A program made the translations under genes and the position numbers. A stretch of 60,078 nucleotides of DNA, counting the filler, from Dirinaria sp. TL-2023a (Eukaryota), in NCBI GenBank assembly GCA_051941275.1. It is 12 parts of 12 records of this genome, joined end to end, with 100 filler letters (N's around TTAATTAATTAA, not from the genome) between each part and the next. Parts side by side here need not be neighbours in the genome. Positions count along the whole stretch, not along the records: positions 35,266 to 40,163 come from JAVEBF010001757.1; 11 more parts are not named here. One strand, written 5' to 3'. Below are positions 4,957-55,216 of this stretch, in pieces (the stretch's first letter is position 1; the number at the start of each line of letters is the position of its first letter). The notes under the pieces are model-generated. The model did not search any database and was not told where the DNA came from. It worked only from the letters and a program-made list of their open reading frames with translations.

Positions 4957-5056
4957 NNNNNNNNNNNNNNNNNNNNNNNNNNNNNNNNNNNNNNNNNNNN
5001 TTAATTAATTAANNNNNNNNNNNNNNNNNNNNNNNNNNNNNNNNNNNNNNNNNNNN
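4957..5056. other. Artificial contig linker
   Basis: N44-TTAATTAATTAA-N44 (stops in all six frames). Confidence 0.99.
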
Positions 5057-6016: not shown

Positions 6017-7954
6017 TCAAACCACCTTCTCCACCTCCGCGACCAACTTCCGAATCTCCTCCCCCCTATCTTTCCTAACCGCCGCAACAACCCCCGGCGC
6101 GCCTAACGCCTCACACAGATCCACCAGCTCCCCTCCCTGCGGCGCGCCATACGCCAACAACCCAACAGCAAGCAACAGCCCTTTCAACCCATCCTCACCT
6201 TCCCTCCCAACGGCCTCCAGTAAACCGGCCATGAGCTCCACCTGCGCGCTTTCGGGGAGCAGATCTTCTTCCTGTTCGAGTCTGGGAGCGTGGTTCGCGG
6301 CCGCAAGGTTGAATGCCAGGGATGCGGCGGCGGCGCGGATGGGAGCGTGGGCCGTGTCGAGGAGGGAGCTGGTTATGAGCTGGATTAGAATGTTGGAGAA
6401 GGAGGGGGATGTTTTTAGGGTTTGGCGAGGGAGGAGCGGGGATGTGAAGAGGTTGCATGCCAGTTGCACGGTTACGATGCGCAGCGTGTAGGGACTGGTT
6501 GGGGAGAGGGCGGTGGAGATTAGGGTTGAGATTGTAGTTGGAGAGGAGGAGGGGGTTGGTTTTCTTTTTTCTTCTTCTTCTTCGGCGAAGAAGCCGCTTA
6601 CGCGTGCGTCGATCAGGGATAGGCGGAGGAGGTCGATGAGTGGGAAGAGGGATTCTAGCGGTAGAGATTGAACTGCGTTCTGGATGTATCTGCTGATGGT
6701 CGGTAGGGATGGTAAGGGAGCGTCAGCTGCCCCCGAGGCGTGGCGCGCAGCTACGAAGTTTTTTAGTGATATCACATCCGGGTCGTTCGCTGAGGATCCA
6801 AGTTTCGCAATTAATTTGTCTAGTGGTGGGACCTTGGCGTACGTGACCGGATGCCGGTGCTGCCTTTGCAGAGTCGGAAGCCGGAGCTTCGTGTGCGGAT
6901 GAGGCGGATGCGCCATTTGCAGCAGCAAACGAATGTTGCCCCTCAACTGACTCTCGTTCGCGCCAGACCATTCGGACTCCTTTTCGCCGCGGAGGAAAGT
7001 TATGAACGTCGGCGTCACGCGGATTTGATACCTCGAGCCGATCTCGTAGGCTTGGCTGATGTCGACTTTGATCAGGACCGCTTTCGCACCGGCTTCTGCT
7101 GCTAGCTCGTCGTAGGCTGGGTAGACCATCTTGCATGGTGGGCAGGTGGCGGATGTGAAGAATATGACGGCGCAGGAAGTTTTGGCTGAGTCTAACAGTG
7201 CCTCTAGATTTCGGAGTTGTGTTACGTTGTGCACTTTTCCGACTGCCTGTTCTTCTGCTGCCGCTGCAGTCGCACCATTTATCCTTGTGGCAGAAGCTGC
7301 CGACGATCCATTGAGATTTCTATTTGATTGCGCGCCCGAGCGAGGAACTGGTGCAGAGGCCACTGGGGCCTGGGTAATACCACGCATTGCTTGGTCGAGC
7401 TGGGGCTTCAGCATCTGCCCAAAAGGGGTGTTTAAGACCGTCTGCGGCAGAGAGGTGATATGGCTGGGGATGTTCTTGCCCACAAGGAACATGGCGAAGT
7501 CATTGGAGAAGTTGTTGCAGTTGTGGATGAACAGGTCGTAAGACTAACACGGGCTGTCAGCATTACTCTGATGATTGACATTCCAACCATCCATTCTGCT
7601 CTCCTGACACCGTACCTCGGCTGTGTAAACCTCCTTCAGACTCTCCAGGTACTCGAGGATGACCTCCAAGGGAAGATCGGTCTTCCCCATGGGTATGATC
7701 TCCATGGGTCGGCCATGATGGGTGGCTCCGGGATACGTCGTCTGCACGCCTGCGCCGAAGAAGTATTCTATCCCCCCGAAAACGATGGCTGTATGGTAGA
7801 CGGCATCGATGTGGACACCGAGAAAGCCAGCAGACATCTGCCTAGCCAGGCCCTATAGGTTTTTTTTCCGTCAGCGGTCTCGAACCTGAGAGATGTGGCG
7901 ACCTGCTAAGAGGCGCACCTTGGAGAGGTCATAGACATACAGCTCGACGTCCAT
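6017..7954 (-). CDS. PPPDE/DESI peptidase - thioredoxin - PUL domain protein
   Basis: ATG 7954 [12 protein letters not shown]. Spliced exons give [19 protein letters not shown] (catalytic His) and [13 protein letters not shown] (catalytic Cys). Then thioredoxin [10 protein letters not shown] and a helical PUL-like C-terminus ([19 protein letters not shown]). Confidence 0.9.
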
Positions 7955-10009
7955 CGTGGAATATCCTGATCCGTAGGTAGTTGGTACTGTAGATATACTA
8001 TTGTAGGTATATATGATGCTGCCTAAGGTACCGAGGCGTTCGAAGATACATGGATGCTTACGTAATGGGCTACGGCGATGCTGACTCATCAAATCCGGCT
8101 GGCTCGAGGGTGAAAAACGATAATTGATTAAAAGTGAGATTGATATGTGATGACAGCATCCGCGATAGTAAACAGCATGTCTCCCAACAGATGGCTAGCT
8201 GTGGCTGAGATCGTTGTTTCGTGGTAGGCCAAAGTCAACTGCGTACTCTAAGCGGTCGCTTTGTCTTTCTGTTCATTACTGCAATAGCACGAGTAGAAGC
8301 ACTTTTCCTGATACTCGCCCCATCACTTCGCCCAGCAGAGGCCGGCTGGAGCTACCACTATTTGTTCTTGTGGCGGGAGAGCAAGCCAGAATGTTCCATT
8401 TTAGCCTCGAACTTGTGCGCAGCGCGTACCTTATGGCTGCTCTCTGCATGTGCTTTTCAACCGCTTTCCCGTAGTTCGATGGCGGGCGTTCATTCTCTGC
8501 AGCGTTTGGCATTTAGATGGAAGGTCAGTCTTTTCTCCGATTGATTTTGATGCCTTCTTTGATACAAACGGCTTCGAGATCGAGGCTTGGCCCTTCGAGA
8601 AACTTCTTCTTTTCTATCCTCGCCGCAAGACGTCGTACTTGATATCAGTGGCGCTCTAATCTCATGTCCTGATGCTCTGCACTGCTTTCCGCCTATTACC
8701 ATCTGCGCTCGCTCCAATACAAATGATCTATGAGAGAACAGATTTGCACGCCCGTTGAAATAATATCAGGCCGGCATAAATATCCCTACCTACTCTGGTC
8801 ATCCCGCACATCCCCAAAAATACATCCACGGAAACGGAGGGTACAGCTATGGAAACCCTGCTCATAATAATTGATAACTTGCGAATTGCGAGTTGCTCTC
8901 TATCAAACGCTCGCTGCGTGAAAACTGGAGTAGTCGAAGATGAAATTGTCATAATCTAAGATAAGTTTGCCGTCTCTATGGTGACAGGAATCATGGAATC
9001 AACTCGGAAATAAATTCCTGCCAATTCTACGAATTAATCCCTGATTTCTAGTAAATAGTTGGCAAAAGCATGGCTCAGCGTATTAGTTGGTAAGCACAAT
9101 ACAAGTAATGAGCATGCATTTCATATTTCTGCTTACTACCAAGCTTCCTAATGAGGAATAAGGTTGCCATATAAGAGAGAGAACAATCATTAAGAATTAT
9201 CACTTCGAGAACTAACTGATTAGTAATGATTTATTCTGCAGCTTCAGAAAATCGTCGACATTATCGATAGTCTCACGTGATCATCACAACGTCAACTGAA
9301 TCATTTAAATCACTCGAATATGTGCTTTTCATCGGCTCCACGCTCTGACTTCGTCTGCTTACAAGAAATCAAAAGAAACCCCCAAAGCTTAGCACTGCTT
9401 GTCCGACACGATATATGCTGCCCGCGATGCCACTGAATTCACAGTTACTTCTTGGCTTTCTCCGCTGTTTTCTGCCAATAAGCGTTTTGTACATTTAACG
9501 ATTTATGCTCGAATGTAGATCCCTCGCATTTGTGATAAGGAGAAAATTACTAGATCGGTCGTACGTAACAGATATTGATCACGAGAATTAAGATTGTTGG
9601 ACATAAGAGTACTGAATAAGGGCGGCAGTGATCAAGGGGCGAAACAAAGCCTTTGTCCACCACATTTCGAACAACTCCTTCGTGTTAAAAAAAATCTGCA
9701 GCGACCATGCTACACTTCATAAACCAAAGGCATTGTCCCCGATGTCCTTATATACCCTTTTTGAATCCGAAATACTCTCCACCACATCCTGGTTTCTCGA
9801 GCCAACGTTCGCTGATCTGAAATCTAATCCTGAGGTACAAGTACCACCAAAAGAACAACAAATAAAGGAGGGAGAAAAGCCTAAAACCCCAGGCAATCAA
9901 ACACAACCCAAAAAAGACTATGTCCCCCTTCGCCCAATTCTGGGGCCTCATGGGAATTCTGCTCGCTTTGGCCACCACGGTCGTGGTCGTAGGAATACTA
10001 TATTATTCC

Positions 10010-10109
10010 NNNNNNNNNNNNNNNNNNNNNNNNNNNNNNNNNNNNNNNNNNNNTTAATTAATTAANNNNNNNNNNNNNNNNNNNNNNNNNNNNNNNNNNN
10101 NNNNNNNNN
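10010..10109. other. Artificial contig linker
   Basis: N44-TTAATTAATTAA-N44. Confidence 0.99.
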
Positions 10110-10316
10110 CTCCAGTTGTCGGAGATCAATAAGAGCGTGTTTCTGTACGGGTGGCAGGAAGGGTATACGACCGTGAGCAGTAACCGGGCTGTGGCGAAGG
10201 CGATCGAGGCTGTGTTTGAGGAGCAAATGAGTGAGGAGGAGGTGGTGGTAGGGCCTGATGTGCGGTTGGTGGGCACGGCGAGGAGTTTGGTCGGGAAGGA
10301 AAAGGGGAGGGGATGA
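10110..10316 (+). CDS. 3' fragment of an unidentified protein (truncated by contig start)
   Basis: Open frame from the contig edge to TGA with protein-like composition (..SVFLYGWQEGYTTVSSNRAVAKAIEAVFEE..). Family not recognised. Confidence 0.45.
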   Translation, partial: LQLSEINKSVFLYGWQEGYTTVSSNRAVAKAIEAVFEEQMSEEEVVVGPDVRLVGTARSLVGKEKGRG

Positions 10317-10740
10317 AGTGAAGGAAGGACATTGGTTTACTACCACCATAGGGTGAATTGAAAATAAACCCGCTTCCATGGCAAGAAATCGTTTTTACAT
10401 ACGCCGCACTGCGAACGAGGGTTGAGATGGGGAGGTGATGACTGGGGAATTCGCAACAATTTACAAACACGATGCAGAAAGGGGGCGGGGTTAATAGATA
10501 AGTACTTAATGATTTGCTAATCGCTCTTCAGTGGTTAATGTATCCTGCCACATCACCATCTGAAAGAGGGTTTTCCAAACGCCAGTGAAATGCTTCTCAG
10601 GGGCGCTTGTGCCTGCCTGCCTGCCATGAAGAAGAAAAAACAAAACAAAACCCAGGGAAATATGCATGCATGCATGATGATACAAGCTTTCTCAGACAAC
10701 CCGGCGGATCCCCATGCCCAGAAACTTCCCAGTCACATCT

Positions 10741-12167
10741 CTAAAAGTCCTCATCGAACGAGAAATCGCCTCCGTTCTCGTGCTTTTTCTCCGCTTCATC
10801 CACGTTCTTCTTGGTGCTGGCCATGACGCCCGACTTCTGGTAGTCACCGACCCGTTTCTCGAAGAAGTTCGTCTTGCCCGCGAGGGAGATGGACTCCATG
10901 AAGTCGAACGGGTTGGCGGAATTGTAGTACTTCTGGTTGCCGAGAGCGACCAGGAGGCGATCAGCCACGAACTCGATGTACTGCTTCATCAGCGTCGCGT
11001 TCATGCCGAGCAGAGCGCAGGGAAGCGCGTCCGTCAGGAACTCTTGCTCGATCGTCACGGCTTCCGTGATCACGTCCTGGACAGCCTGCTTGCTGGGCCG
11101 GTTCTTGAGATGCGAGAAGAGCAGGCAAGCAAAGTCTGTATGAAGACCTTCGTCACGGGAAATGAGCTCGTTCGAGAAGGTGAGGCCGGGCATCAATCCT
11201 CGCTTCTTGAGCCAGAAGATGGATGCAAAGGAGCCGCTGAAAAAGATGCCCTCGACTGCGGCGAAGGCTACGAGGCGTTGAGCGAAGGTGGAGCTCTTGT
11301 CTTGGATCCACTTGATAGCCCAATCGGCTTTCTTACGGATGCAAGGGACTAAAGACGTGTCAGTGCCGTGTTTTATTTTGTGGATGAGGATACTGACTGG
11401 TGTCAATGGCATCGAAGAGGTATGTACGTTGCTTCTGCTCCTTGATGTAGGTATCGATGAGGAGGGAGTACATCTCTGAATGGATGTTCTCCATCATGAT
11501 CTGAAAACCGTAGAAGCATCGAGCCTCGGGGATCTGGACTTCTCCACTGAATCGCTCGACCAGGTTCTCGTTCACAATCCCGTCAGAGGCGGCGAAGAAA
11601 GCCAGCACGTGGGAGATGAAGTATTTCTCGTCGTCGTTTAATCGGTTGTTCCAGTCATGGAGGTCTTTGGACAGATCCACTTCCTCGGCGGTCCAGAAGG
11701 ATGCTTCGGCCTTCTTGTACATTTGCCAGACCTAGAAGGAATGTTAGCTCGATTGTTGTGAAAACACTATACGCGTGACGCGTCAGACACTTACCTCGTG
11801 ATACTTGATGGGGAAGAGGACGAAGCGGTGGGGATTCTCTTGTAGAAGCGGTTCGTCGGCCTCTTCGTCTTTGATGCCGGGAGCAACAGCTGGCCTCTGT
11901 CCTTTCTCGACAACATCAACATGGGCCTTCTTCAATTCAAGGTCGTCAACCACAGGGGTGTGAGCGACGGCGTCTTCCTTCGCGTTTTCCTTGTCGATGG
12001 ATTGGAAATCAATCTTCTTCGCCGGCGAATCGCCCATTTTGAGCTTTTCGAGCCCTGAGGCAGCCTTTTCGAGAGTATTAGTATCAATGCACGCCAGCAA
12101 GGTTCAGAGCAAAGAGAGTGGCGGGGCAATGACATACGTTCTTGGAAGGAGTGGTTTGAGTAGCCAT
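10741..12167 (-). CDS. RNR2: Ribonucleoside-diphosphate reductase small (R2) subunit
   Basis: ATG 12167 [10 protein letters not shown]. Motifs [64 protein letters not shown] and C-terminal FSFDEDF. Three GT-AG introns. Confidence 0.97.
11771..11785. promoter_or_regulatory. Tandem MluI cell-cycle box (ACGCGT x2) inside RNR2 intron 2
   Basis: ACGCGTgACGCGTca lies within intron 11732-11794. Function is inferred. Confidence 0.45.
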
Positions 12168-12291
12168 TATTACTATTGAATTAGAAGAACAGACACAGGA
12201 TCAATGTTTCTTTGCAGACTTTGAATGCAGGTTATGTATCTGCTGCCACAGCTGTTGATGAGGAAAGTAGTGTGTAGACAACAAGGGAAAA

Positions 12292-12346
12292 CACGAAACA
12301 TGAAAGAGCTTTTTGAGCGCGTCTCGATGTCACGAGTCGACGCGAA
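12292..12346. promoter_or_regulatory. SCB/MCB-like G1/S elements in the RNR2 promoter
   Basis: CACGAAA at 12292, GCGCGT at 12317 and ACGCGAA at 12340, about 125-180 bp upstream of the ATG. Confidence 0.5.
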
Positions 12347-12672
12347 GTGCGGCAGCTAACCATTTCCGTCATAATGAGCGCCGCTGACTAATCACATCTC
12401 GATTCCATCTCGTGATCTTCTGCTTGATCGGAATCTACATTACTTTTTGTTCACGACGAGGGATCCGCTCAGGCAAGTGAGAGGTTACATTATCTCCGAA
12501 CAAGGCCCGAAAGGCAAGAGGCAAATAGATGTTTGTCTGCTCCTCCAAATCGCTACATAGGTACAAGCACAGCAATCACAGCAACGAAATTGCAAGCAAA
12601 CACACCGTCAATCACCAGCAATAAATTGCGAGACATGATTAGATACTTTATATGGGACCCATTTCCCACTAT

Positions 12673-35265: not shown

Positions 35266-35624
35266 CCCAAGCACTTCCCCCGAGACATTCGATTCCACCA
35301 TTATTCTACGGTCGGAAACCCTTACAGCTTCGTCGTTATGTCACACCCAGCAGCACAAGCCTGCTCCTATCGAGCTGAGGCGTCTCTCATACCTCCATTC
35401 CTTCCCATGCACCACGCGACATCGCAGAGGAGAGGAGCTGGGGACGTTCAGAGGCAGTTTCAGCTTGTCGGTCAGCAAGCGGGCACACGAGCTAGCGACA
35501 ATGGTGACGGGGCGTACGTCTCATGGGGAGCTCTGCGCAGCTGGGACGCGCTACAAAGGCAAGTCAGGAAGAAACACTGTCAGACCCTCAAGCTGACAAG
35601 CTCTCATCGTCCCAGGCAACCCCC

Positions 35625-36800
35625 CGCTACGATCCGCCGAGCAAACGAAGAACCTACAGTGAGCCTGCTACAATGGAACTCCGCCGGCAACCACAATGAC
35701 TGCTCGATCACCTGTCAACGGACGGAGGTAGAGGAGACTTGGTGCGGCGGGCAAGGATAAGAGCTTCGAATGCATACACATCGTTGGAGCCTGGGTTGAC
35801 TGGAGAAGAACTACGCTTTGCATTAGGCGCTGGCGTAACCTCGCGCTGCGATCCCCCGAGCAAACAGGGAGCCTACAGTGAGCCTGCTACAATGGACCTT
35901 CGTCAACATCCACAATAATTGCTCAAGCACCTGGCGTTGACCGAGGTAGAGGGGACTGGGTGGGACGGGGAAGGATAAGAGCTTCGAAACCATACACTTC
36001 GTTGGAGGCTGCCTCGCACTGCGATCCGCCGAGCAAAGGAAGAACCTACAGTGAGCCTGCTACAATGGACTCTCGCCAACATCCACAATAACTGCTCAAG
36101 CACCTGCAACCGCGTTGACTGAGGTAGAGGGCCGCGGGGAAGGACAAGAGCTTGGAAAGCATACACTTCCTTGGAGGCTGCCTCGCGCTGCGATCCGCCG
36201 AGCATACGAAGAATCTACAGCGATCCTGCTACAATAGATCTCCGCCAACATCCACAAGGACTGCTAGAGCTAAGTAGAGGGCGGCGGGGAAGGATAAGAT
36301 CTTGGCAAGCATACACTTCGCTGGAGGTTGGGTTGACTGGACACGAACTACGCTTCGCATTGGGTGCTGGGGTTACCTCGCGCTGCGCAAACAGAGCCTA
36401 CAGTGAGCCTGCTACAATGGACCTCCGCCAGCAACCACAATTATTGCTCGAGCCCTCGCGACGGTGTTGATCGAGGTAGAGATGATTCGATGGGACGGAG
36501 AAGAGTGAGAGCTTGGAAGGCATACACTTCGTTGAAGCCTTGGTTAGCTGGACAGAAATCACGCTTGCATTGGGCGCTGGGATTCTTTCGGACTGGAATC
36601 CGCCGAGCAAACGGAGAACCTACAGTGAGCCTGCTACAATGGACCTCTGCCAACCATAATGACTGCCCGAGCTCTTGAGACGACGTTGACTGGGAGACTC
36701 GATGGGACGGCAAAGAATAAGAGCTTGGAAAGCATACACTTCGTGGGAGCCTGGGTTGACTGAAGATGGACTACAACATGGCTTGAGCGCTGGGGTTGCA
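35625..36800 (+). repeat. Six-unit modular tandem repeat (169-222 bp units)
   Basis: Block CCTACAGTGAGCCTGCTACAATGGA at 35653, 35872, 36045, 36214 (variant), 36397 and 36619. Block GAGCTTGGAAAGCATACACTTCG, with variants, at about 35761, 35979, 36148, 36298, 36509 and 36721. Confidence 0.93.
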
Positions 36801-37129
36801 GATGACTTGGAGCTGCGAAGAGACGGACGCCAGGACTGGCTGCGACTGGATGGAGGAAAAGAACGAAGACTGTGGCAGGCCATAAGCAGCAATGGTCCGT
36901 TCGAGCGACTGATGGGCGTAGCACATGTCAATTGCAGTTGGCTGGATGCAAGAAGTCCTGGAGTGTTACATCAATCGGTATGCAGGTTCCTCGAGGAGGG
37001 AGACGGGCACGAGATCCTCAACTGACTGTGTGGTCCTAGGTCCGGCTCGTACCCACAGCTCTTCACACTCCGCGTTTCCTCTCCAACACACTTAGTCCCA
37101 GAACCTCAACTTCCATGCGCAGCTTTGAG

Positions 37130-38050
37130 TTGCAAGATATCTGCGATATCCACCTATCAGTGACATCGACCCACGATCCCAACATACCTATCTACCTCCC
37201 CCTATCTACGTTTCAGCGATATCAACCTGGGCTACCTATCTATCTACCTCCCTGCCATATGGACCTGCCTCTGCACCTCCGATTCCGACCTGCGATATTT
37301 ATCTATCTGCCTGCGATATCCACCTCCCATATCCAACTACCACGATACTGATCTATTCTGTCAACCTCTCCACCTTCCCATCTACTACTGACATCGAACC
37401 GCGATACCGACATACCTGCCTACCTACCCACCTACCTACCTACCTACCAGCCATACCAACCTGCTTGCCTCTGTACCTCCCATCTACCTCCCTATCTACC
37501 CATCTATGTATCGACCAGCGATATCAACATGGGCTACCTATCTACCGATCTACGTGCAATATCGACCTGCTTGCTACTGCACCTCTGATTCCGATCTAGC
37601 ATATCTATCTCCCTAGCTGCCTGCGATATCCACCCCTTCACCTTCACATCTACCAGCGATATCATCCTGGGATTTCCATCTACCCTGTCTGTCTTTGTAT
37701 CTGCGATTCCTGTCTGCGATCCTTATCTACCTAGGTATCTGCGATATCTATCTCCCGTTCCAGCTATCTATCCACGATACTGATCTATCCTGTCTACCAC
37801 TCTCCCTCCTGGTCTACCCGCGATATCAATTTGTCACATGAAACTCTCGTATTCATCTACTTATCCACGATATCGATGATCTATTCTGCCCATCTATCTA
37901 CCTGCGATTCGAACTTGCGATAGCAAACTCCAATATCTATCTGCGATATCGACCCATGCTATCTAACTCCACCCCTTCTCATCTACATACGATATCGAGC
38001 TCCCACATCCACGTTATCGATCTACGCTAACTATCTCTTTATCTGCGACT
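37130..38050 (+). repeat. Degenerate low-complexity minisatellite built from GCGATATC and TATCTAC/TACC motifs
   Basis: More than 15 CGATAT/CGATAC copies at irregular spacing. G-poor top strand. (TACC)n at about 37415-37448. Confidence 0.8.
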
Positions 38051-38574
38051 CGGATCTTTACGACCCTGGAAACTCAAGTAGGAGAATAGATAACCAAGTC
38101 TGATATAATTGATCTTTTGATAACGATCTTATCGGGACTTTAACCAAGGGAAACCTATCTAATTAAGAGCGGATTTCGAAAATTCGAGGACATGAATAAG
38201 TTCTTGATAAATTCGACGAGGGAATAAAAATTACCCTGGGAAAAACAACGTGTAAACTCTTTACTCAAAAAATTTAAGAAATCTATTTTTTTTTAATTCT
38301 TACTCGATTCAACACCCACAAGGGGCCTATGCGAGATCTATATACTTATATCGGCGGCGCGTCAGCGCTGCGTCGACTCTTTCCTTGTTACGTGCAGTTT
38401 TCTCTATCCATAGTACTAGGAAATCCTTCATGCGAGGACTCTATGGGTCTAAGGATTCGAAGAAAGAGCAGTCGTCTGAAACTGACTGAGTAGATCAGTG
38501 GATAAGATCATGCGTATCGCCGCTGTGACATCAGCGACGTTATCGAGCAGCTTTCTCACATCTGTGATGTTATT

Positions 38575-38779
38575 TGTCAGGGCCTGCACAGCGCTCAATG
38601 ACATATGAGTGCTAGTAGACTAGGACACTAACTATGAAGAAGAAAAGGAAAGAAAATCTATCTACAGAAAGACTCAAATAGGGACCCGAAGCAATATCGA
38701 TCCGAGGGGACGCTGGGCCTGATCATGTGACCTGATCATGTGACCTGATCTAAGGTGCTCCAGGTCTAGGTTCATGACA
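38575..38779. mobile_element. Solo-LTR-like element (205 bp)
   Basis: Perfect TGTCA...TGACA termini, internal 13-bp tandem CCTGATCATGTGA and an abrupt composition change at 38779/38780. No matching target-site duplication. An alternative left end is TGTGACA at 38524. Confidence 0.5.
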
Positions 38780-40163
38780 TCTTTCAGTCTTTTCGTTTCT
38801 GAATTCATTCAATTTTGTACTTCTGCAAGTTTTTTCTAGTGAGACTAACGCGATAAGCTCGAGCTTTGTTCTGAGCAGTTTTAATTTGTGAAGCAGAAAC
38901 ATGCTCGACTTGAAGTCGATGAACTTAATTTTTTAATCTCAAAAGTTGTGAATCTCGTTTGATCGCAGTTTTTCTTTCGATTGAAAGACTGTTTGAGAGA
39001 TTCTTCTCGCGAGACTTTGCAAAAAATTGAAAGTAGTCAATATAATCGTGCTAAGTAGATTCATTCAAAAATGTCGATTTTTCATTCACAAACGAGATGT
39101 TCGTCACATAGCTTTGATTATAAACTCGAGTATCGATCTGCGTTATGTGCTGAGATTGTTTAATCTCGATATATCTTTTTACATAATTCTGTCGTCAGCG
39201 AGAGCTGATTCGAAATTGAGTTGTATTTAAAATGACTGATTATTAATCTTCTTGTCGAGATAACGACGTATAGCATGAACTGTAATATTGTCAAAATATC
39301 TCGAGAAATTCAACACGAATTTGACGATACGATCAAATATTTTCTTCGACAGCGACTCTTCTGAGACACTTTGTTGCATAATAGCATTGCGCAATATTAA
39401 TAAATATTTGACAAATTTAGTTCATCGAAAAAAAAATTCGTTGTTGTCGAGAGAGATTTGTAGCTATCAGAAGTTCTTAGATGAATCGATATCTCAGAAT
39501 GTCTTGTCTGCAAAGATTAAAGTCAACAGATACTGAATATCATCATACAGCAACTTGTCGTGTTGACTGATAAATGCGTCATATCTACGAAAATAAAACA
39601 TCGTCAATAAACGCATCAGTGCGAAGAGATGAGAAATAGTACACAATATTTTTCGAATCACGATTGTTTTTCACTCAACGCTGATCAATTCGATAAATCA
39701 TCTTTCATCTCTCTGAAACGCGTATCAGAAAAATTTCAATATTCTGCAAGCGATTAGCGAAGCTTCTCATCTTTTCACGTAGATTTATTTGATATCGAAG
39801 ATCTCTTTTGTTTTTGTTCTTCTGATTGAGAAAAAAGACGTTAATTCTCGTTTCAGTTCAACAAAAGACGACGATTGCGAAGAAAACTTAAGTTTTGTTA
39901 CGCGAATGAATGAATTGCGCATCGTCGATAATTCAGAACGTAATGTTAAACTAAATCAGTTTTTTCTCGTTAAAAAAATGCTTTTATTTTTTTTTTATTC
40001 ACGATTAGATCTTTTTTTATCAATGTATTTCGTGTCCACTGATGAAGACTTGTTTAACTAGAGAGACGTCGTAAACATTCAGAATGTACTCACGTCGTAT
40101 ACTGCACGTCTATCTTTCTCATCGATCAGATTGTCGATGACTCGAGCAAATTCAGCAAAGTAT
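38780..40163 (-). pseudogene. RIP-inactivated DUF3435 tyrosine recombinase (Starship captain family)
   Basis: Manual minus-strand translation across four intron remnants: FIHSRNKT*VFFAIVVFC*TETRINVFF, DLRYQ|NIEIFL, YRIDQR*VKNNRDSKNIV, HDKLLYDDIQYLLTLIFADK, ITVHAIRRYLDKKIN, SQHITQIDTRVYNQSYVTN, YKIE*IQKRKD*K. Reversing C->T/G->A gives FCWTGARIG, GLRY, HAIRR and GQSY. Confidence 0.85.
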
Positions 40164-40263
40164 NNNNNNNNNNNNNNNNNNNNNNNNNNNNNNNNNNNNN
40201 NNNNNNNTTAATTAATTAANNNNNNNNNNNNNNNNNNNNNNNNNNNNNNNNNNNNNNNNNNNN
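40164..40263. other. Artificial contig linker
   Basis: N44-TTAATTAATTAA-N44. Confidence 0.99.
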
Positions 40264-42535: not shown

Positions 42536-44238
42536 ATGGCTCCTACAGATGTTCCCAACAGTCCGTGCAGCCGCTATGGGTATTGGATTGCTTCACTTTT
42601 CTTTGGCTTCCTCACGACCGCATGGCTCGTCTACAGCTATCCAACGTCAGCGACAACCCAGCAGCCTCTCTCCTTAAGTACACACGCCAATAAACACGGT
42701 AGCTGCCCTAGCGAAGCTAAACGTGTAGCTATCATTGGTAAATGGTCCTCCAAGGACGAGCCTGTCTCGCTTCAACTGAAGAATGTGCTTTAGGTGCCGG
42801 CTCTGGAGGAGCTTCCTCGGCCTTCTACCTCCATCGAGCGTATCCATGCCCATTGAACGTCACTGTCTACGAAAGGGAAAACTACATTGGCGGAAGGTCG
42901 ACCACAGTTGGCGTGTATGGAGATTCATCAGTACCAGTGGAACTCGGCGCTAGCATCTTCGTCAACGTCAACTATAATCTTGTCTCCGCTGTAGAGCGAT
43001 TCAATCTCTCCACAGTGAATTACGGTGGGGAGGACCTCGATGGCCTCACGAAAGGACTCGGTGTATGGAACGGGGAAAAATTCGTCTTCATACAAAGTGA
43101 TGCAAGCTACGACTGGTGGAATACAGCTAAGCTGCTATGGAGATATGGTATGAGCCCGATACGAACACAGCGCCTCATGAAAGACACTGTGAGCAAGTTT
43201 CTCAAAATGTACGAGACGCCAATCTTCCCTTTCAAGTCCATCGGCGAGACTGCTCTTGAATTAGGCCTTTTGGCGCCTAGTATGAGGTCCGAACAGCTAT
43301 TGAAAGAGAACGCCATCTACGCTCCGTTCTCGACGGACATTATCCAAGCATCTACACGTGTCAACTACGCCCAGAACCTAGCACAGATTCATGGTCTGGA
43401 AGCTATGGTCTGTATGGCTACCGATGGAGCTATGTCTGTCAATGGCGGAAATTGGCAGATTTTCGACAAGATGCTCAAGCATGACAAGAATACCATTGTG
43501 CTCAATACCAGCGTGTCTGATATATCTATACCAGGAGGCGGGAAGCAATATTCAGTAACGTCATCCTCATCGGGCGCTGACTTACATGATGCCACATCTA
43601 CTAACGTCGAACTGTTCGATAATGTCGTTCTTGCCGCTCCTTTGCAGTTCGCTAATATCACCATCAATCCCTCCCCTGCTTTTCCACCATCTCCGATTCC
43701 TTATGTGACCCTCTACGTCACGCTCTTTACCTCGCCATATCGCCCCAATCCCGACCATTTTAACGTCCGTAATCCATCAGACGTCCCTACCATCATCCTA
43801 ACAACCCTCCCCGAAGAAGGCGGATCGCCTCCACCATTCTTCAGCCTCAGCACTCTCCGCACAGTCGTCAACCCGAACATTCAGCCCCCTCAAAAAGAAT
43901 ATCTCTACAAGATTTTCTCACCGACCCCGCTACCTCTCCCTTCTATATCCGAAATGCTTAATGTGCCACCCGATCTCCGATCTTTGTCCTCAATATACAA
44001 CGAAAACAATATCATTACCTGGCAGTACAACAAAACATGGCATTCCTACCCTTACCTGCCTCCTCGCGTCACGTTCGATGATCCGCAGCTTGATGAGGCG
44101 GGGAGGCTGTGGTATACGAGTGGCATTGAACCATTCATTTCGACGATGGAGACGAGCTCGTTGATGGGCAAAAATGTGGCGCATTTGATTGTGGATGGTT
44201 GGCTACGAGAGCAGACGTCAGCGGAAGGAGAAGATTAG
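42536..44238 (+). CDS. Prenylcysteine oxidase/lyase
   Basis: N-terminal TM segment, RVAIIG|AGSGGAS (FAD site, spliced), VELGASIFV, QASTRVNYAQN, GGNWQIF and IEPFISTMETSSLMGKNVA. Confidence 0.92.
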
Positions 44239-55116: not shown

Positions 55117-55216
55117 NNNNNNNNNNNNNNNNNNNNNNNNNNNNNNNNNNNNNNNNNNNNTTAATTAATTAANNNNNNNNNNNNNNNNNNNNNNNNNNNN
55201 NNNNNNNNNNNNNNNN
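55117..55216. other. Artificial contig linker
   Basis: N44-TTAATTAATTAA-N44. Confidence 0.99.

Follow-up and report, generated by a model that had tools for sequence, protein, structure and literature searches.

A captain-type (DUF3435) gene relic with CpC-directed hypermutation on a contig of Dirinaria sp. TL-2023a

Introduction

A short AT-rich block at the end of one contig of Dirinaria sp. TL-2023a (assembly GCA_051941275.1, contig JAVEBF010001757.1) raises two questions, namely which gene it once was and what kind of mutation destroyed it. The block belongs to a 60,078-nt stretch of DNA, hereafter the window, which is composed of 12 contigs of 4,862-4,956 bp placed in order of descending length; the contigs are joined artificially, so that neighbouring "genes" on either side of a spacer are unlinked. 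An original prediction made from the sequence alone had placed in the block a hidden tyrosine recombinase of the family whose members, the "captains", mobilize the giant Starship transposons. Further work on Starship captains as DUF3435 tyrosine recombinases was reportedly published by Urquhart et al. in 2023. Starship captains are described as DUF3435 (PF11917) tyrosine recombinases by Gluck-Thaler et al. (2022, PMC9156397), and for lichen fungal genomes, Tagirdzhanova et al. (2026, PNAS, 10.1101/2025.11.25.690456 / PMC13486527) give 4,128 putative captains, with 1,139 set aside as putative pseudogenes, so that a dead captain in such a fungus is to be expected. The relic described here carries damage of another spectrum than that of ordinary repeat-induced point mutation (RIP): its C>T and G>A changes are directed predominantly at CpC, while CpA is largely spared.

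Homology of the Block

The block occupies exactly 38771-40163 (1.39 kb, minus strand) of a 4898-bp contig (35266-40163), and its right edge coincides with the contig end. Its guanine-cytosine (GC) content is 0.335 as a whole and 0.33 in 39001-40000, against about 0.5 elsewhere. The three minus frames contain 23, 32, and 28 stops, and no stop-to-stop open reading frame (ORF) on this strand exceeds 64 amino acids; two of the three plus-strand ORFs matched no Pfam family, and the third gives only a sub-threshold match (E 0.045).

When minus-strand frame 1 was compared by phmmer with 1.84 billion representative proteins, 68 matches at E<=1e-3 were obtained (23 at <=1e-10, the best 3.2e-68). The C-terminal part, read in frame 0, matched a single protein among 97 candidates, P0004 (E 1.3e-38, 63% identity), which is 533 amino acids long and carries PF11917 (E 6.8e-24), and a word-index search for shorter relatives retrieved P0005 and P0006 alone among 59 candidates. 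With full-length P0076 (787 amino acids), tblastn yielded five high-scoring segment pairs in the window, covering residues 134-522 of the query; the DUF3435 domain of this protein (PF11917, E 2e-30, residues 183-502) falls entirely within the part covered by the block. P0004 and P0076 fall into one 90% cluster together with two proteins assigned by name to a metagenome-assembled genome (MAG) of Alectoria sarmentosa, and further relatives carry the names Lecanora helva and Sclerophora amabilis. At the DNA level, 17 related loci (L001 to L017) were fetched from metagenome contigs for comparison, and the block is the only part of the 60-kb window that matches them.

The relic keeps the order Arg ... 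His-x-x-Arg ... Tyr, residues that we take, after the literature, to be catalytic. The arginine of C-(TGA)-T-E-T-R-I is the AGA codon at 39848-39846 and stands at the place of the family's W-T-G-A-R-I-G motif; HAIRR is encoded on the minus strand by CAT GCT ATA CGT CGT at 39277-39263; and the tyrosine of QSY is the TAT codon at 39110-39108, in a column (Y412 of P0076) that is invariant in seven relatives. Both the positions and the order of these motifs had been predicted correctly, and the DUF3435-type coding sequence that was expected on the minus strand, interrupted by stops and introns, is borne out by the homology to PF11917 proteins and by four retained introns. Judged by this homology, the block derives from a DUF3435 tyrosine-recombinase ("captain") gene.

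Anatomy and Damage of the Relic

The block is colinear with the DNA of L005, at 70% identity over block positions 4-1378 (blastn), and, introns included, with nine intact or near-intact loci. Since all four introns are kept between the five exon pieces (Table 1), the copy must have originated from DNA. Among the 388 codons that could be aligned to P0076, 242 are identical and 146 differ; 115 of the differences are explicable by C>T or G>A changes alone, and 31 require another change. If the codons explicable in this way are counted together with the identical ones, the progenitor would have been about 92% identical to P0076.

The losses fall very unevenly on the amino acids. All 20 Gly and all 12 Pro codons are changed, and nine of the ten Trp codons have become TGA, while five of six His and 18 of 26 Gln have survived. 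The block spans 36 family-invariant positions and preserves 26 of them; the seven that are Gly or Pro are all lost. The path along P0076 meets 15 in-frame stops, six of them TAA or TAG. In comparison with at least seven of the nine outgroup loci, an extra nucleotide in an A-run near 39996 shifts the frame and three nucleotides are deleted near 39714; the introns have also lost short stretches, and two nucleotides have been inserted at 38778. Two intron donors and one acceptor have been destroyed. With its stops, frameshift, codon deletion, splice-site loss, and both ends missing, the gene is neither intact nor translatable, and the relic is a non-functional fragment that does nothing today.

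It might be asked whether such a sequence could be a live gene in which TGA is read as tryptophan, as the gene callers of metagenome catalogues apparently assumed for the sister copies P0005, P0006, P0009, P0012, and P0024. Nine ancestral Trp codons are indeed TGA, frame 1 becomes nearly open over about 190 codons when TGA is read through, and the five catalogue "proteins" show Trp at the TGA positions of the window. This reading can be practically dismissed: it is refuted by the TAA and TAG stops together with the +1 frameshift, and it is further contradicted by the damaged splice sites, by the disappearance of every Gly and Pro codon, the seven invariant ones included, and by the course of the catalogue ORFs themselves, which run through introns and out-of-frame stretches.

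The Mutation Spectrum

Although 231 C and 236 G are present in the block, CC/GG occurs just once, where 78.2 occurrences would be expected; none of 2000 shuffled versions had fewer than 55, and the Poisson probability is 8e-33. The sole surviving GG lies in the TGG Trp codon at 40038-40036, in exon piece 2. CC and GG together account for 0.1% of dinucleotides in the block vs 11.8% in the rest of the window, where the longest gap free of CC/GG is 167 bp; the other shares are nearly the same inside and outside, at 11.8 vs 13.4% for CA+TG, 11.1 vs 13.2% for CT+AG, and 5.3 vs 5.7% for CG.

For counting the changes, the ancestral base was defined as that common to at least seven of the nine outgroup loci, which gave 1044 columns. 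C>T was found at 86 of 243 sites and G>A at 101 of 250, against 12 of 247 for T>C and 18 of 304 for A>G. With the strands folded, 73 of 83 CpC sites (88%) were mutated, as compared with 30 of 82 CpT, 14 of 85 CpA, and 14 of 71 CpG sites; by trinucleotides, the values are 63/72 for NCC, 29/80 for NCT, 11/76 for NCA, and 15/73 for NCG. Among 85 ancestral CC dinucleotides, 53 are now TC, 17 TT, 9 CT, and 1 CC, and the preponderance of TC over CT marks the 5′ C as the main target. Counts per 150 columns show changes of both strands intermingled from end to end of the block. The same method applied to the same columns of L005 as a positive control returned a CpA-type spectrum (CpA 30/87, CpC 7/83, CpG 7/71, CpT 6/83), and the negative controls L001, L002, L013, and L010 showed 3-16% in every context, with C>T counts about equal to T>C counts. 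The ten Trp codons reflect the same difference: nine are TGA in the window, four are TAG in L005/L007, and all remain TGG in the intact loci.

RIP is described as acting predominantly on CpA, with CpG variants (Aspergillus MATE, Microbotryum TCG, Tuber) and with CpT as a variant or accompanying signature (RIPCAL, PMC2621366; Amselem et al. 2015, PMC4352252; PMC12543289; PMC5555474), and a kingdom-wide survey of 2025 presents the CpA preference as common to RIP-like defences (PMC12543289). A dominant CpC signature is named in none of these sources. By suggesting a "de-RIP" consensus, the original prediction assumed an ordinary relic of canonical CpA to TpA RIP. The block does resemble the products of canonical RIP in Neurospora and most Pezizomycotina in its near-saturating C>T/G>A changes on both strands, its sharp edge, and the killing of a transposon gene; it is AT-rich, and canonical RIP is both documented in lichen fungi (10.1101/2025.11.25.690456; PMC12542154) and visible here in L002, L005/L007, and L012. 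However, 88% of CpC sites are mutated while most CpA and CpG sites (16% and 20% mutated) have escaped, and there is no enrichment of TpA. The two indices in standard use, for which RIPCAL (PMC2621366) gives thresholds of at least 0.89 for TpA/ApT and at most 1.03 for (CpA+TpG)/(ApC+GpT), take values of 0.59 and 1.19 in the block, so that the standard criteria do not flag it. The observed/expected ratio of CA/TG is 1.06, in comparison with 0.06-0.11 in canonical blocks, and the His and Gln codons mostly survive. The context counts (CpC 73/83 vs CpA 14/85) refute canonical RIP, which is very improbable as the source of this damage.

Another alternative retains the CC-directedness but not the induction by repeats, and invokes an AID/APOBEC-like deaminase, methylation-dependent deamination (in heterochromatin or during transposition), or dipyrimidine damage of the ultraviolet (UV) type. 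In its favour, the dependence of the damage on duplication or meiosis is something that we infer, lichens are exposed to UV, and C before a pyrimidine is favoured in the block (CpC 88%, CpT 37%). Enzymes of the APOBEC3G type prefer CC, and their editing resembles the damage seen here in that cytosine is deaminated in a CC context and Trp codons are turned into stops. However, the target of APOBEC3G is the second (3′) C of CC, and a single strand is edited (GG on the plus strand becomes AG, and TGG becomes TAG), whereas in the window it is the 5′ C that has changed (GG to GA, TGG to TGA; TC 53 vs CT 9), on both strands and in intron-bearing DNA. The strands are affected about equally and in an interleaved manner (C>T 86, G>A 101), unlike in the editing of single-stranded cDNA or DNA, and the classic UV target, pyrimidine-C-purine, is not raised (TCA 3/17, CCA 4/26, TCG 8/33). 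Besides, the damage is limited to 1.39 kb and ends no more than about 25 nt from the end of homology, the flank having a normal CC/GG content. UV-type and APOBEC3G-type causes were rejected on grounds of context and strand, and the alternative as a whole seems unlikely.

Very probably, the relic is a piece of a captain gene that fell victim to a RIP-like process with the preference CpC >> CpT > CpA and CpG. The gene would have been the DUF3435 captain of a Starship-like element in a lichen-forming or lichen-associated ascomycete. Its DNA-derived copy was inactivated by saturating C>T and G>A changes on both strands, confined to the segment homologous to the relatives. Nearly every CpC/GpG has been removed in this way, mostly by conversion of CC to TC, with the loss of the Gly and Pro codons and of nine in ten Trp codons. 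The transitions probably stem from a duplication-triggered, RIP-like defence that deaminates cytosine and prefers CpC, a preference unlike that of the canonical, CpA-directed RIP that has struck another copy of the captain family in a different lichen metagenome.

Recurrence of the Signature

The AT-rich blocks of the fetched loci are of two sharply distinct kinds when observed/expected dinucleotide ratios are considered. In the canonical kind (L002 501-3500, L005/L007 10501-12590, L012 1-500), CA/TG is 0.06-0.11, TA 1.6-1.75, and CC/GG 1.3-1.7. In the other kind, represented by the window block and by L017 1-2271, CC/GG is 0.01-0.02, CA/TG 0.86-1.06, and CG 1.9-3.3. The L017 block contains 0 CC and 1 GG at a GC content of 0.216, has a CpG ratio of 3.3, and breaks off sharply at 2271; a captain fragment lies 2.7 kb away.

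A captain copy with the canonical signature is found in L005 5001-7590 and L007 5001-7590, which come from two metagenomes and are 99.6% identical to each other, flanks included. It has undergone light CpA-type RIP (TpA/ApT 1.06, CpA 30/87 mutated) and adjoins the heavily CpA-RIPed AT-rich block 10501-12590.

Further instances of the CpC signature seem to be hidden in protein catalogues. Five of the 68 phmmer matches, the above-mentioned P0005, P0006, P0009, P0012, and P0024, are predicted proteins that contain neither Gly nor Pro and read through introns. They have Trp where the window has TGA, out-of-frame positions included, so they were presumably called with TGA translated as Trp. These five are hypermutated captain relics that figure as false proteins in metagenome catalogues. 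At 26 positions none of the three relics compared (the window copy, P0005, and P0006) agrees with P0076, and at 13 of these the three carry different residues, as expected for independent changes at the same CC/GG targets.

The Left Edge of the Relic and Its Flank

The original prediction had taken the contig for the 5′ part of a dead Starship-like element with its interior to the left, and this part of it was not supported. Clear homology ends at about 38778-38779, immediately after the 2-nt insertion; weaker similarity may extend as far as about 38750, where CC/GG dinucleotides are still present. Hypermutation stops at 38771, within about 25 nt of the homology end, and beyond it the CC/GG content is normal. 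The copy thus breaks off at about codon 522 of at least 787, with about 265 codons (the 3′ third) missing, and nothing in the window matches residues 269-533 of P0004. Relatives carry at least 0.7-5 kb of shared sequence beyond the break point, while neither blastn nor tblastx aligns the left flank (35266-38790) with any of the 17 loci. The eight ORFs scanned in this flank matched no Pfam family, and hence none of DUF3723, FRE, PLP, or NLR. The flank consists of minisatellite and low-complexity DNA (Table 1), and by self-blastn, more diverged copies of the minisatellite extend across 35614-36797. A 13-bp repeat, CCTGATCATGTGA, is situated just where the captain homology ends and may be a mark of the breakpoint event.

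The end of homology and hypermutation, together with the unrelated left flank, indicates that the contig shows a gene fragment and not the 5′ part of an element; the 5′ boundary of the element lies outside the contig, beyond its end at 40163. It is still conceivable that a decayed Starship has its 5′ part here and lost the 3′ end of its captain through a later deletion or insertion: the orientation fits, since the gene points to the left and the interior of related elements follows the captain on its downstream side, and a later insertion into the relic is compatible with a left flank visible for 3.5 kb only. Given the coincidence of both endings at 38750-38778, the missing codons, and a flank of normal CC/GG content that matches neither relatives nor Starship companion families, we consider this quite improbable.

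Relatives of the Relic and the Starship Link

In an all-against-all comparison of 12 loci, the copies become homologous at a sharp boundary, a conserved terminal sequence 350-385 bp upstream of the start codon. L001 and L003 are 99.4% identical inside and have unrelated upstream flanks; L008 and L013 are 99.8% identical, share at least 5 kb downstream (the limit of the fetched DNA), and are likewise unrelated upstream. Near-identical copies with unrelated flanks imply that one and the same element occupies different sites and that its 5′ end carries the recombinase gene, directed towards the interior. In L010, DUF3723 ORFs lie 3 kb downstream of the captain on the same strand (6415-8436, E 1.6e-71 and 9.4e-30). 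L004 has HeLo and NB-ARC ORFs downstream of the captain (9720-11108) and fragments of a Copia-type reverse transcriptase (RVT_2) upstream of it (224-1406), and in L005 an NPHP3_N domain is found upstream. No 3′ ends or target-site duplications were found in the fetched loci of the relatives, and scans of the contig and 15 loci revealed no tRNA or Rfam family and therefore no tRNA or 5S target site for the captain family.

The relatives thus share with Starship captains a gene that lies about 360 bp from a conserved 5′ end of the element and reads inward, DUF3723 downstream (L010), and NLR-type domains nearby (NB-ARC, HeLo, and NPHP3_N in L004 and L005); these sequence features point to a family that behaves like Starship captains. 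The relic itself is homologous over the whole Pfam-matched region and keeps R...HxxRR...Y in order, but differs from a Starship captain in being a fragment whose contig holds neither start nor end of the gene, and no element boundary, target-site duplication or terminal inverted repeat, or cargo. By the Starship definition of Gluck-Thaler et al. (2022), a DUF3435 gene stands at the 5′ end of a large, cargo-bearing insertion that is flanked by target-site duplications and has an empty site in other individuals; DUF3723, FRE, PLP, and NLR are named as companion genes (PMC9156397), and the derelict, degraded, and Starship-like categories of the same source require DUF3435 plus DUF3723/FRE/PLP/NLR or at least three conserved cargo genes (PMC9156397). 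The window resembles derelict Starships in containing a decayed component remnant, but what it has is a DUF3435 relic alone. The predicted Starship link is supported in the relatives, which are captain-like in their 5′ end, flanks, and DUF3723; the relic itself falls under neither the Starship nor the Starship-like definition. It is very likely, nonetheless, that the relic is the fossil of an element that still moves, or until recently moved, in related genomes.

Some further observations concern the ends of the element and the gene models of the family. The conserved 5′ terminus starts with ..CTTGGC.. and is seen at about 120-235 in L001, at about 4635-4750 in L008/L013, and likewise in L002, L004, and L005. 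About 30 bp inside it lies an inverted repeat, CCCAGCTC / GAGCTGGG, with its arms 37-38 nt apart, and in several insertions CTAG occurs 7-13 bp outside the element boundary as a possible target-site motif. P0008 (292 amino acids) and P0084 begin as a captain fragment, with residues 1-109 matching the family, and then run on into unrelated sequence, which we take to resemble a HET-type domain; a chimeric gene call or an insertion-disrupted gene is possible in these cases.

Table 1. Coordinates of the relic, its parts, and the surrounding features in the window
Feature	Position	Strand	Basis or remark
Hypermutated DUF3435 gene relic (P0076 residues 134-522)	38771..40163	-	tblastn, blastn, GC, CC/GG count
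Exon piece 1, P0076 residues 134-156	40094..40162	-	tblastn and codon alignment
Intron 1, 55 nt	40039..40093	-	GT...AG kept; aligned to L001, L002, L005, L013, L010
Exon piece 2, P0076 residues 157-239	39789..40038	-	tblastn; holds C-(TGA)-T-E-T-R-I motif
Intron 2, 45 nt	39744..39788	-	donor GT to AT; alignment to relatives
Exon piece 3, P0076 residues about 240-274	39643..39743	-	one codon deleted near 39714
Intron 3, 58 nt	39585..39642	-	GT...AG kept; alignment to relatives
Exon piece 4, P0076 residues about 274-389	39241..39584	-	contains HAIRR 39277-39263
Intron 4, 62 nt	39179..39240	-	donor GT to AT, acceptor AG to AA; alignment to relatives
Exon piece 5, P0076 residues 389-522	38778..39178	-	contains QSY tyrosine 39110-39108
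Junction	38750..38778	.	clear homology ends at about 38778-38779 after 2-nt insertion
13-bp unit CCTGATCATGTGA, 2.5 copies	38718..38750	+	directly beside junction
Left flank, outside element	35266..38717	.	minisatellite and low-complexity DNA
Minisatellite, about 170-bp units	35614-36797		TRF period 169, 2.5 copies, 84% match at 35839-36265
Low-complexity C/T-rich repeats	37187-37802		strong negative GC skew in 37001-38000
TACC microsatellite, (TACC)11	37405-37448
Spacer N44-TTAATTAATTAA-N44	40164..40263	.	joins concatenated contigs
Artificial spacers (N44-TTAATTAATTAA-N44) between contigs	4957-5056, 10010-10109, ... 55117-55216

Host Affinity

On the neighbouring contig of the window, an intact ORF of 498 amino acids of the prenylcysteine-lyase / amine-oxidase type (PF07156, PF01593) is located at 42742-44238 (+). 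Its best named relative is from a Teloschistes MAG (68%), with Parmeliaceae at about 55% and unnamed catalogue proteins at up to 89%. This affinity is unlike that of the relic, whose progenitor would be about 92% identical to a protein clustered with those of the Alectoria MAG. The mismatch might mean that the element has spread horizontally, or that the bin is mixed. Horizontal spread of elements has been proposed, for other clades, in the lichen Starship paper (10.1101/2025.11.25.690456).

Discussion

Several points weigh against reading the block as a captain relic of a CpC-directed, RIP-like process, and they concern both the identity of the gene and the nature of the damage. When the three minus frames of the block were searched against Pfam with stops as X, no family was returned at E<=10; thus, of the two kinds of search that had been proposed for this locus, tblastn (with P0076, five segment pairs) supported the assignment and the profile search on the block's own frames did not. 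The Pfam miss is accounted for by the loss of Gly, Pro, and Trp codons and is therefore no argument against homology, and the sister relic P0024 still matches PF11917 at 1.2e-10. A profile of ten relatives compared with PDB sequences gave a designed repeat protein and two matches at E>1, all judged spurious, and family membership accordingly is founded on pairwise and profile-free homology. The ancestral states are derived from loci 64-70% identical at the DNA level and refer to conserved columns only. CpC is the dominant but not the exclusive target: the rates at CpT (37%) and at CpA/CpG (16-20%) exceed the reverse-transition background of about 5%. The second block with this signature, in L017, has an unrecognizable origin, its six frames being too dense in stops. 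An assembly chimera is a possible origin of the junction at 38750-38778. Finally, the term "RIP-like" is one that we infer from the direction of the changes, the strand symmetry, and the confinement to the homologous segment, and a dependence on duplication, meiosis, or a particular enzyme has the same standing.

Beyond this single locus, it may be that some lichen-forming or lichen-associated ascomycetes run a RIP-like defence that deaminates CpC to saturation and largely spares CpA and CpG, while others direct canonical CpA RIP at the same captain family, a proposition on which we are evenly divided. A literature search, with subscription literature outside its reach, found no CpC-dominant RIP.

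Significance

The captain relic itself is routine, since lichen fungi are already known for thousands of captains and many pseudogenes; it is the mutation signature, not the relic, that is worth following. The related loci, for their part, provide exact 5′ termini of a recently mobile Starship-like family from lichen metagenomes. RIP is defined operationally through CpA-based indices, and in lichen genome papers RIP is scored by RIPper indices or GC content alone (10.1101/2025.11.25.690456; PMC12542154). If the CpC form is real, its relics would go unnoticed by the TpA/ApT-based indices on which all RIP surveys rely, and RIP-affected DNA would be under-counted in at least some Lecanoromycetes. 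Transposon relics of this type, devoid of Gly, Pro, and Trp codons, would escape both RIP scanners and Pfam, and would be mis-called as "proteins" with TGA as Trp in metagenome catalogues. The CpC form would also point to an enzyme whose specificity for the flanking base is new, be it a variant of RID/DIM-2 or another deaminase. A comparison of the cytosine-methyltransferase and deaminase genes of CpA-type and CpC-type genomes could then identify the residues that set the site preference of RIP.

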